Shown piece by piece: positions 3,523-4,348 of a stretch of DNA of 7,494 nt. The stretch is from a virus (taxonomy: Duplodnaviria; Heunggongvirae; Uroviricota; Caudoviricetes): the IMG/VR virus record IMGVR_UViG_2534681674_000036, positions 1-7,494 of that record. The stretch is one strand, 5' to 3'. The first letter of the stretch is position 1. Each line of letters starts with the position of its first letter. Under the pieces are notes generated by a model. The model searched no databases. It was not told the origin of the DNA and worked only from the letters and a program-made list of their open reading frames with translations. Made by a program: the position numbers and the translations under genes.

Positions 3523-4071
3523 ATGACCACTATAACCGATAAGAAACAGTATCCCAGCAAGCAATATCTTAATGAGCTGATCACCAACATAGAGTTTGCT
3601 GCAAGGGCACCAGTTGAAGTCGTGAGAGCGATGGCAGCAGAGCTACAGAAGCGGCGCGAAGCTGATAGTGCAGAACCTGTAAGCCAAACTTACAAGTTGC
3701 CAGTTAATACACCTTGCCAAGATGCGCCAGCCCATATCTGGCTGCAAACGGCTGGAGTATGGCCAGAAGATGGCGAGTTAAGCGAATTAACGTGGTGCAG
3801 CCACAATCAGCACCATGATGACACGCTATATGTTCGAGCTGACCTTGTGAATGGCAACTCTCCGGTAATTCCGGATGGTTGGATAAGCTGTAGTGAGCGA
3901 ATGCCGGATAAGTTAATTCCGGTAATGGTCATGTATGAAGACGGTGAGATGTGGTCTGCAATGTGGAATGGTAATCGCTGGGATGATGGCACCGAATATC
4001 CGGATCCGCACTCAGTTACGCACTGGCGTGAAATGCCAGCAGCACCGAAGCAGGAGGTTAACCGTGGCTAA
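3523..4071 (+). CDS. Prophage protein with a probable DUF551-like C-terminal domain
   Basis: AAGGAGAG ribosome-binding site at 3511-3518. The Trp-rich C-terminal segment (PDGWISCSERMPD..VMV..WSAMWNGNRWDD..THWREMP) is typical of the DUF551 family; function unknown. Confidence 0.65.
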   Translation: MTTITDKKQYPSKQYLNELITNIEFAARAPVEVVRAMAAELQKRREADSAEPVSQTYKLPVNTPCQDAPAHIWLQTAGVWPEDGELSELTWCSHNQHHDDTLYVRADLVNGNSPVIPDGWISCSERMPDKLIPVMVMYEDGEMWSAMWNGNRWDDGTEYPDPHSVTHWREMPAAPKQEVNRG

Positions 4072-4348
4072 CCTGCAACTTGCCGTTAAAGGTGAATACT
4101 TCGATGCCATGATTCGCGGAGAGAAAACGGAAGAGTATCGCCTGTGTAATGACTACTGGAAAAAGCGCCTCGTTAACCGTAAGTATGACCGCCTGATTAT
4201 CACAAAGGGATATCCGAAGCGCGACGACTTCAGTCGCAGAATTGATGTCCCGTATGACGGATATGAAATCAAGACAATCACACATCCCCACTTCGGCGAT
4301 AAACCGGTAAAGGTATACGCGATAAAGGTGAATATCAGCAATGAATAA
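4064..4348 (+). CDS. ASCH-like (PUA-fold) domain protein, 94 aa
   Basis: GTG 4064 has an AGGAGG site at 4052-4057. GEKTEEYR matches the ASCH signature GxKxxExR. The start overlaps the upstream stop by 8 nt. Confidence 0.6.
   Translation: MANLQLAVKGEYFDAMIRGEKTEEYRLCNDYWKKRLVNRKYDRLIITKGYPKRDDFSRRIDVPYDGYEIKTITHPHFGDKPVKVYAIKVNISNE

Follow-up and report, generated by a model that had tools for sequence, protein, structure and literature searches.

In the long-established textbook picture, the early-left region is a mosaic of dispensable accessory genes. The exo-xis region is highly mosaic and is transcribed very early; it can be lost under laboratory conditions and has a modulating effect on the choice between lysis and lysogeny (PMC10834534, PMC10789677). 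Several proteins described earlier share their C-terminal DUF551 domain with one of the two proteins studied here, namely the EaA-type DUF551 proteins of P22, YfdS of E. coli CPS-53 and the Ea22 "V2" variant of Stx phages. YfdS has been linked to H2O2 tolerance (PMC4776307), and both the V2 variant and the nature of DUF551 as a portable domain have been described (PMC10834534).

The second protein studied here is ASCH-like. The phage ASCH proteins of PHROG 625 (ST104 orf6, APC_JM3.2 gp35 and WP_000002094.1) are 73-100% identical to it and their genes likewise lie towards the xis/int end of the early-left operon; the protein of the present locus is an ordinary allele of this group. The ST104 record likens orf6 to L0064 of 933W. 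ASCH proteins from structural genomics, 3iuw of E. faecalis, 2z0t (PH0355) and 1xne (PF0470), are 15-23% identical to the present protein. Characterized enzymes with this fold include ZmASCH and YqfB. ZmASCH of Zymomonas mobilis (5guq, 5gus) is a single-strand RNA-specific ribonuclease of ~145 amino acids with extra elements, whereas the present protein is 50 residues shorter and 12-17% identical to it. The catalytic residues reported for ZmASCH are Tyr47, Lys53 and Ser128. E. coli YqfB (9kyf, 9kyh) shares 13% identity and is encoded by a host housekeeping gene, in contrast to the phage-borne gene studied here; its catalytic residues are Lys21, Thr24, Arg26 and Glu74 (PMC9599836). The first-pass annotation of the locus had stated that neither the DUF551 nor the ASCH family has a defined role in phage biology. 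In agreement with this, the searchable literature yielded no defined phage role and no functional study for a phage DUF551 or ASCH protein.

The early-left arm of a lambdoid prophage

The DNA analysed, referred to below as the window, is a stretch of 7494 bases that matches the chromosomes of E. coli strains 2013C-4974 and OkiPb01713 at 100%. The annotated record reads, in order, partial recombinase, ssb, 3'-5' exonuclease, anti-RecBCD protein, DUF5405, DUF2737, a hypothetical protein, Lar, ead/Ea22-like, DUF551, ASCH, a further hypothetical protein, excisionase and integrase, followed by the host gene ybhC. The window is the early-left (pL) arm, comprising the exo-xis region, of a lambdoid prophage; the prophage occupies the attachment site of lambda, adjacent to ybhC. 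The Lar-family restriction alleviation gene (2672-2938; 38 bits in Pfam against a cut-off of 28.6) overlaps the ea22 reading frame at its 5' end. The ea22 homologue itself (2844-3521, with the ORF listed from 2733) matches the Ead_Ea22 coiled coil (PF13935) with 85.7 bits and lies directly upstream of the DUF551 gene. Its C-terminal domain is of the lambda type and contains the HRYYGIGG loop, which has been discussed for the NMR structure of lambda Ea22 (PMC10834534).

The early region is broken by two IS3-family insertions, close to gene N and to the recombinase gene (L003 2666-5958, NZ_AP042682 upstream of the window; NZ_CP027587), and the window match in strain 2013C-4974 is split in two pieces around an IS3 element. 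Because the early region near N and the recombinase gene is disrupted, the prophage carrying these insertions is probably defective.

The two genes of interest, together with the features within them, lie on the + strand. The first (3523-4071) encodes a 182-aa, EaA-like DUF551 domain protein that falls in PHROG 60, 924 and 6847 and is present in RefSeq as WP_000207907.1. The second runs from GTG 4064 to TAA 4346-4348 and encodes a single-domain ASCH/PUA-like protein of 94 aa (4064-4348; PHROG 625, RefSeq WP_000002094.1). The stop codon of the DUF551 gene (TAA, 4069-4071) lies inside the ASCH-like gene, so that the two overlap by 8 nt (4064-4071), and a Shine-Dalgarno sequence read from the sequence, AGGAGG at 4052-4057, is found 6 nt before the GTG. 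The positions first assigned to the pair (3523-4348) and the 8-nt overlap are therefore confirmed by the ORFs, the stop at 4069-4071 and the GTG at 4064. A longer ASCH ORF, listed from ATG 3935, was set aside, as the RefSeq start, the MANLQ N-terminus of homologues and the position of the Shine-Dalgarno sequence all favour 4064. Both proteins are already named DUF551 and ASCH in RefSeq; as an annotation the pair is known and ordinary.

The DUF551 and ASCH-like genes assort independently

On the basis of the overlap, the first-pass annotation had proposed a functional pair in which the two genes are coupled in translation. Their neighbours were surveyed in both directions. The ASCH survey took in 84 loci, made up of 80 viral contigs carrying a close ASCH gene, three annotated records and the window itself, and the reverse survey covered 80 viral loci with a DUF551 domain of the DGWISCS type. 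The surveys comprise the best-scoring 80 loci per scan and represent closely related enterobacterial phages, so that percentages derived from them are biased and indicative only. Directly upstream of the ASCH gene a DUF551 protein is encoded at 27 of the 84 loci, and an 86-aa protein without Pfam match at another 27/84; in all, at least seven gene types other than DUF551 occupy this position. The neighbour is DUF4752 at 11/84 loci, a modular protein ending in a CxxCxGxG motif at 5/84, a TraR/DksA zinc finger protein at 4/84, a dATP/dGTP pyrophosphohydrolase fusion at 4/84, another Ea22-like protein at 3/84 and Lar at 1/84, with other short ORFs at the last 2/84.

The 8-nt overlap, with either a GTG or an ATG start, was present at 50 of the 84 ASCH loci, including loci with unrelated upstream proteins, ST104 being an example. 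Such unrelated proteins (DUF4752, CxxCxGxG-type, pyrophosphohydrolase fusion, Ea22-like and Lar-like) end in ...(Q)EVNRG or ...EEGRG. Indeed, most of the alternative upstream genes share both the 8-nt overlap and the ...NRG tail, the 86-aa protein and TraR/DksA being the exceptions. Because unrelated upstream genes share these features, the overlap appears to be a property of the start region of the ASCH gene and not of a partnership.

The reverse survey showed an ASCH gene overlapping by 8 nt at 22 of the 80 DUF551 loci and an ASCH gene 256-548 nt downstream, behind another gene, at 9/80. At 47/80 loci at least 400 nt of downstream sequence contained no ASCH gene, and in the remaining 2/80 the sequence ends too soon to tell. 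An identical in-frame deletion of 249 bp has removed the ASCH gene at 12 of the 80 loci (L110, L111, L113, L118, L119, L133, L138, L140, L144, L149, L155 and L163) while DUF551 is intact; the DUF551 gene lies directly upstream in 11/12 of these and is separated by an intervening gene in 1/12. The deletion joins the TGAATA hexamers at 4093-4098 and 4342-4347, and what is left of the gene is a stub of 11 codons, MANLQLAVKGE. An 11-bp repeat was considered as deletion junction and rejected, as BLAST coordinates give the 6-bp repeat TGAATA.

A similar picture was obtained outside these surveys. The ASCH gene (at least 80% coverage) was found in 1465 of 5426 complete E. coli genomes and the exact pair of the window in 34. 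Seven distant loci of the ASCH family, from Pseudomonas, Uliginosibacterium, an Oleiphilaceae genome and metagenomes, had no DUF551 neighbour; the distant genes lie in phage-like arrays of small ORFs, often with 4-nt overlaps with their neighbours. The two genes assort independently in the early-left operon, and neither across related elements nor across the breadth of both families was the adjacency maintained that an obligate DUF551-ASCH module calls for.

The simplest reading is that the conserved junction, which holds the ribosome-binding site and start codon of the ASCH gene, is a boundary of mosaic recombination that travels with this gene. Any gene landing upstream would gain its ...NRG tail from the junction, and the adjacency of DUF551 and ASCH would be a product of mosaic recombination. 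On this reading the start/stop overlap marks a recombination junction and not a partnership, and the analysis removes the guilt-by-association inference that had been drawn from it. Three database proteins described as fusions (P0121, P0122 and P0140) have an upstream gene joined to the ASCH frame through ...QNRRRRLTVANLQ. Since QNRRRRLTVANLQ is the ASCH-frame translation of the conserved junction, these fusions are probably due to a lost upstream stop or frame, or they are gene-calling artefacts.

It was also considered that the genes constitute a dedicated two-protein module, kept at a fixed ratio by translational coupling, in which both proteins have modified nucleic acid or host RNA as their joint target. 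The 8-nt overlap and a Shine-Dalgarno sequence inside the upstream gene would suit such a module, as would the recurrence of the arrangement at 27/84 ASCH loci and 22/80 DUF551 loci, for instance in phage APC_JM3.2. Nevertheless, the overlap and the ...NRG tail are also seen with DUF4752, CxxCxGxG-type, pyrophosphohydrolase-fusion, Ea22-like and Lar-like genes, 47 of the 80 DUF551 genes are without a nearby ASCH gene, ASCH is deleted in 12, and the distant ASCH relatives are without DUF551 neighbours. A dedicated module is thus very unlikely, and the claim of a functional, translationally coupled pair did not survive the finding that the genes are unlinked in related prophages (paired at 27/84 and 22/80 loci). 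The recurrent adjacency in ~30% of the loci is compatible with an optional interaction between the two proteins. At the other extreme, one or both ORFs might be non-functional remnants of mosaic recombination, in line with the deletion of the ASCH gene in some phages and with the laboratory dispensability of the region (PMC10789677). This is hardly credible in view of the pN/pS value of 0.21 over 86 alleles of the ASCH gene, the size of its family (~800 clusters at 50% identity) and the conservation of the motif residues there, and the strong Pfam match and thousands of intact relatives of the DUF551 gene. The explanation we favour, and hold to be reasonably probable, is that the locus contains two independent and dispensable accessory genes of the pL operon, the ASCH-like protein probably being a binder of bases or nucleic acid and the DUF551 protein a putative adaptor.

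The DUF551 gene is modular

Recognition of a DUF551 domain in the 182-aa protein proved correct: the PF04448 (DUF551) profile matches aa 119-176 over model positions 1-68 of 68 with 65.4 bits against a cut-off of 22, and RefSeq WP_000207907.1 carries the same name. The match is present in all close relatives, and the relatives number more than 6000. The protein is also Trp-rich, as had been noted, with 8 W among 182 aa (4.4%). No match to PF13935 (Ead_Ea22) was obtained for it in the Pfam search. It differs in this respect from Ea22 V2, as the window protein is without the Ead_Ea22 domain and a separate ea22 gene lies immediately upstream.

Alignment with relatives showed that the gene consists of four segments. 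The N-terminal segment (aa 1-50, 3523-3672) is variable and unrelated N-termini take its place in relatives; the PHROG 6847 match is confined to aa 1-61, and a low-confidence model predicts the segment to be helical, with helices at 13-48. It is followed by a near-invariant middle module (aa 51-128, 3673-3906) that ends in the linker PDGWISCSERMP, the columns from V53 to P128 being invariant in 46 sequences. This module is common to Ea22-fused and other variants, and phages whose cores are unrelated still share 94-98% identity in the nucleotide flank at 3852-3912. The core of the DUF551 domain (aa 129-165, 3907-4017) is hypervariable and is the portion of the domain that can be exchanged. No fewer than 17 core types of 36-63 aa were distinguished, with a median pairwise identity of 22%, and PF04448 matches were significant for all 17. 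The cores show no nucleotide similarity between the conserved flanks, while the flanks are 93-98% identical across phages. The gene ends in a conserved C-terminal tail, THW..P..P.QEVNRG followed by the stop (4018-4071), where the next gene has its ribosome-binding site and start. The tail, THWMPLPEPPQEV(NRG), is conserved across 46 aligned relatives, and nucleotides 4040-4098 are 93-94% identical in other phages. The DUF551 gene is therefore modular, with a variable N-terminus, an invariant middle and a near-wholly phage-specific core between near-identical flanks.

Elsewhere the middle module and DUF551 half are fused to Ead/Ea22 coiled coils (P0283 and P0291). These fused forms agree with the Ea22 V2 variant and the portability of the DUF551 domain as described in PMC10834534. 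Like the Ea22/EaA proteins, a group that modulates the choice between lysis and lysogeny, the DUF551 protein may serve as an adaptor of which the exchangeable core sets the host or competitor target that is bound. Structure prediction, which the first-pass annotation had recommended for both proteins, was of little help here: the AlphaFold2 model of the whole protein is poor (pLDDT 44.7), with best values of 64-71 over aa 130-170. For the ASCH-like protein it gave a confident model, for which Foldseek placed ASCH structures at the top.

The ASCH-like protein and its possible activity

The GxKxxExR signature reported for the 94-aa protein is present exactly, as G19-E-K21-T-E-E24-Y-R26 on strand beta-2 (4118-4141), and its core residues are conserved in 66 diverse relatives. 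Among these 66, K21 is invariant and G19, E24, R26, W32, G49-Y50-P51, G66, H74 and F77 are conserved at 90% or more. Taken alone, the window protein scores 14.6 bits against the Pfam ASCH profile (PF04266), below the cut-off of 21.2, in a match of aa 6-29 with the first 24 model positions only. Among the relatives, 27 of the 66 match Pfam ASCH (best E 4e-5) and 10 match DUF3850 of the same clan. An AlphaFold2 model built with 43 homologues (pLDDT 85.6) shows strand-helix-strand-helix and then four strands, with GxKxxExR on the strand at 23-27, after a helix at 10-18. The best Foldseek matches in the PDB were the ASCH structures 3iuw, 1xne, 2z0t, ZmASCH 5gus and YqfB 9kyh, with probabilities of 0.98-0.75 and TM scores of ~0.5. 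Because the Pfam matches of relatives and the structure model and fold search back the marginal sequence score, the ASCH assignment, which RefSeq WP_000002094.1 also carries, was accepted. The protein, a single-domain beta-barrel, is supported, at the superfamily level, as a divergent and minimal member of the ASCH-like, PUA-like fold.

An exhaustive search placed the family in ~800 clusters at 50% identity. The pN/pS value of the gene is 0.21 over 86 distinct alleles, with variable sites mostly at third codon positions. The ASCH-like gene is real and under purifying selection. Sequence searches of both proteins and their family profiles against all PDB chains returned nothing meaningful and NCBIfam had no match for either protein, nor did PADLOC-DB (anti-phage defence) at E 0.01 or better for either protein or five neighbours. 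Longer members of the ASCH family were scanned for informative fusions, which gave only a reverse-transcriptase fragment and zinc-ribbon matches, all of them sub-threshold.

From its fold and conserved residues, the ASCH-like protein may be expected to act alone, as a small binder, possibly a hydrolase, of a nucleobase or nucleic acid that is possibly modified. The likely site would be a predicted pocket in which the invariant Lys is joined by conserved residues, namely Glu, Arg, His74 and aromatics; other PUA-like domains bind by such a pocket (PMC7641849). The protein would then act early in infection or induction, in host takeover or counter-defence.

A more specific activity would follow if the protein were of a characterized enzyme type, either a YqfB-like N4-acylcytidine amidohydrolase or a single-strand RNA nuclease like ZmASCH. 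YqfB (9kyf, 9kyh) and ZmASCH (5gus, 5guq) are among the top structural matches, K21 and R26 are in register with the catalytic octapeptide of YqfB, and the conserved His74 and His76 could serve catalysis. A profile-profile comparison with YqfB aligned residues 11-28 only, an 18-residue motif region, in exact register (E 0.08). Within the octapeptide G19-R26, Lys21 and Arg26 are kept, but in at least 90% of the family, the window protein included, a Glu takes the place of Thr24 (PMC9599836 for the YqfB residues), and Glu74 of YqfB has no aligned residue. A YqfB-type N4-acetylcytidine amidohydrolase was rejected, because the nucleophile Thr24 is Glu in the window protein. With the size difference of 50 residues and the 12-17% identity to ZmASCH also against it, membership of either enzyme type is improbable.

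Alternatively, the ASCH-like protein might aid restriction alleviation of the Lar type, by reading methylated or unmethylated adenine of DNA or by binding a type I restriction-modification (R-M) complex, and so protect incoming phage DNA. A Lar gene is present in the same operon (2672-2938), and the ASCH gene directly follows a Lar-family gene in L015 and L087; in L170 a Lar-family gene comes three genes after it. The model matches a viral protein of 168 aa in BFVD (TM 0.70, probability 1.0) that bears the name 'Restriction alleviation protein', but this name is an unconfirmed automatic annotation. Several ASCH relatives have N-terminal zinc-ribbon extensions, yet without a significant match to the Lar profile. 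Furthermore, ASCH and EVE domains are reported to adjoin or be fused with type I R-M systems (PMC7641849). Lar genes are, however, common in such regions, so that nearness may be chance, and Lar is absent from 4 of the 7 distant contexts; a link with Lar is, on balance, rather unlikely. Bolder still is the suggestion that the DUF551 core is a hypervariable specificity cassette which retargets the adaptor to factors of the host or of rival phages and that, separately, the ASCH-like protein is a reader of base modification assisting Lar. We regard this combination as a long shot; if the cassette or modification-reader part were true, it would provide the first function for a family carried by at least about one in four E. 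coli genomes.

With two independent accessory genes as the preferred reading, the residual value of the locus is a DUF551 core that varies like a cassette and an ASCH-fold gene of very wide distribution. This gene is abundant in E. coli (1465/5426 complete genomes) and under purifying selection, and a clear biochemical result on the protein would annotate thousands of prophages, Shiga-toxin phages included.

Terminator-like hairpins with T-runs are found directly 3' of the ASCH stop, at 4350-4371 and 4382-4401, and just upstream of xis, at 4760-4779. In the interval 3300-5100 five hairpins were found against 1.6 expected, and the segment of the first one (4350-4371) is 96-97% conserved in other phages. 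The hairpins 3' of the ASCH gene and upstream of xis may serve as terminators of the pL operon through which transcription continues when N antitermination is active. The ORF at 4408-4719 encodes a protein of 103 aa that belongs to PHROG 3680 (E 2e-69) and is named hypothetical in RefSeq; it has a C4 zinc-finger motif with a weak, sub-threshold likeness (15.7 bits) to the N-terminal zinc finger of ClpX.
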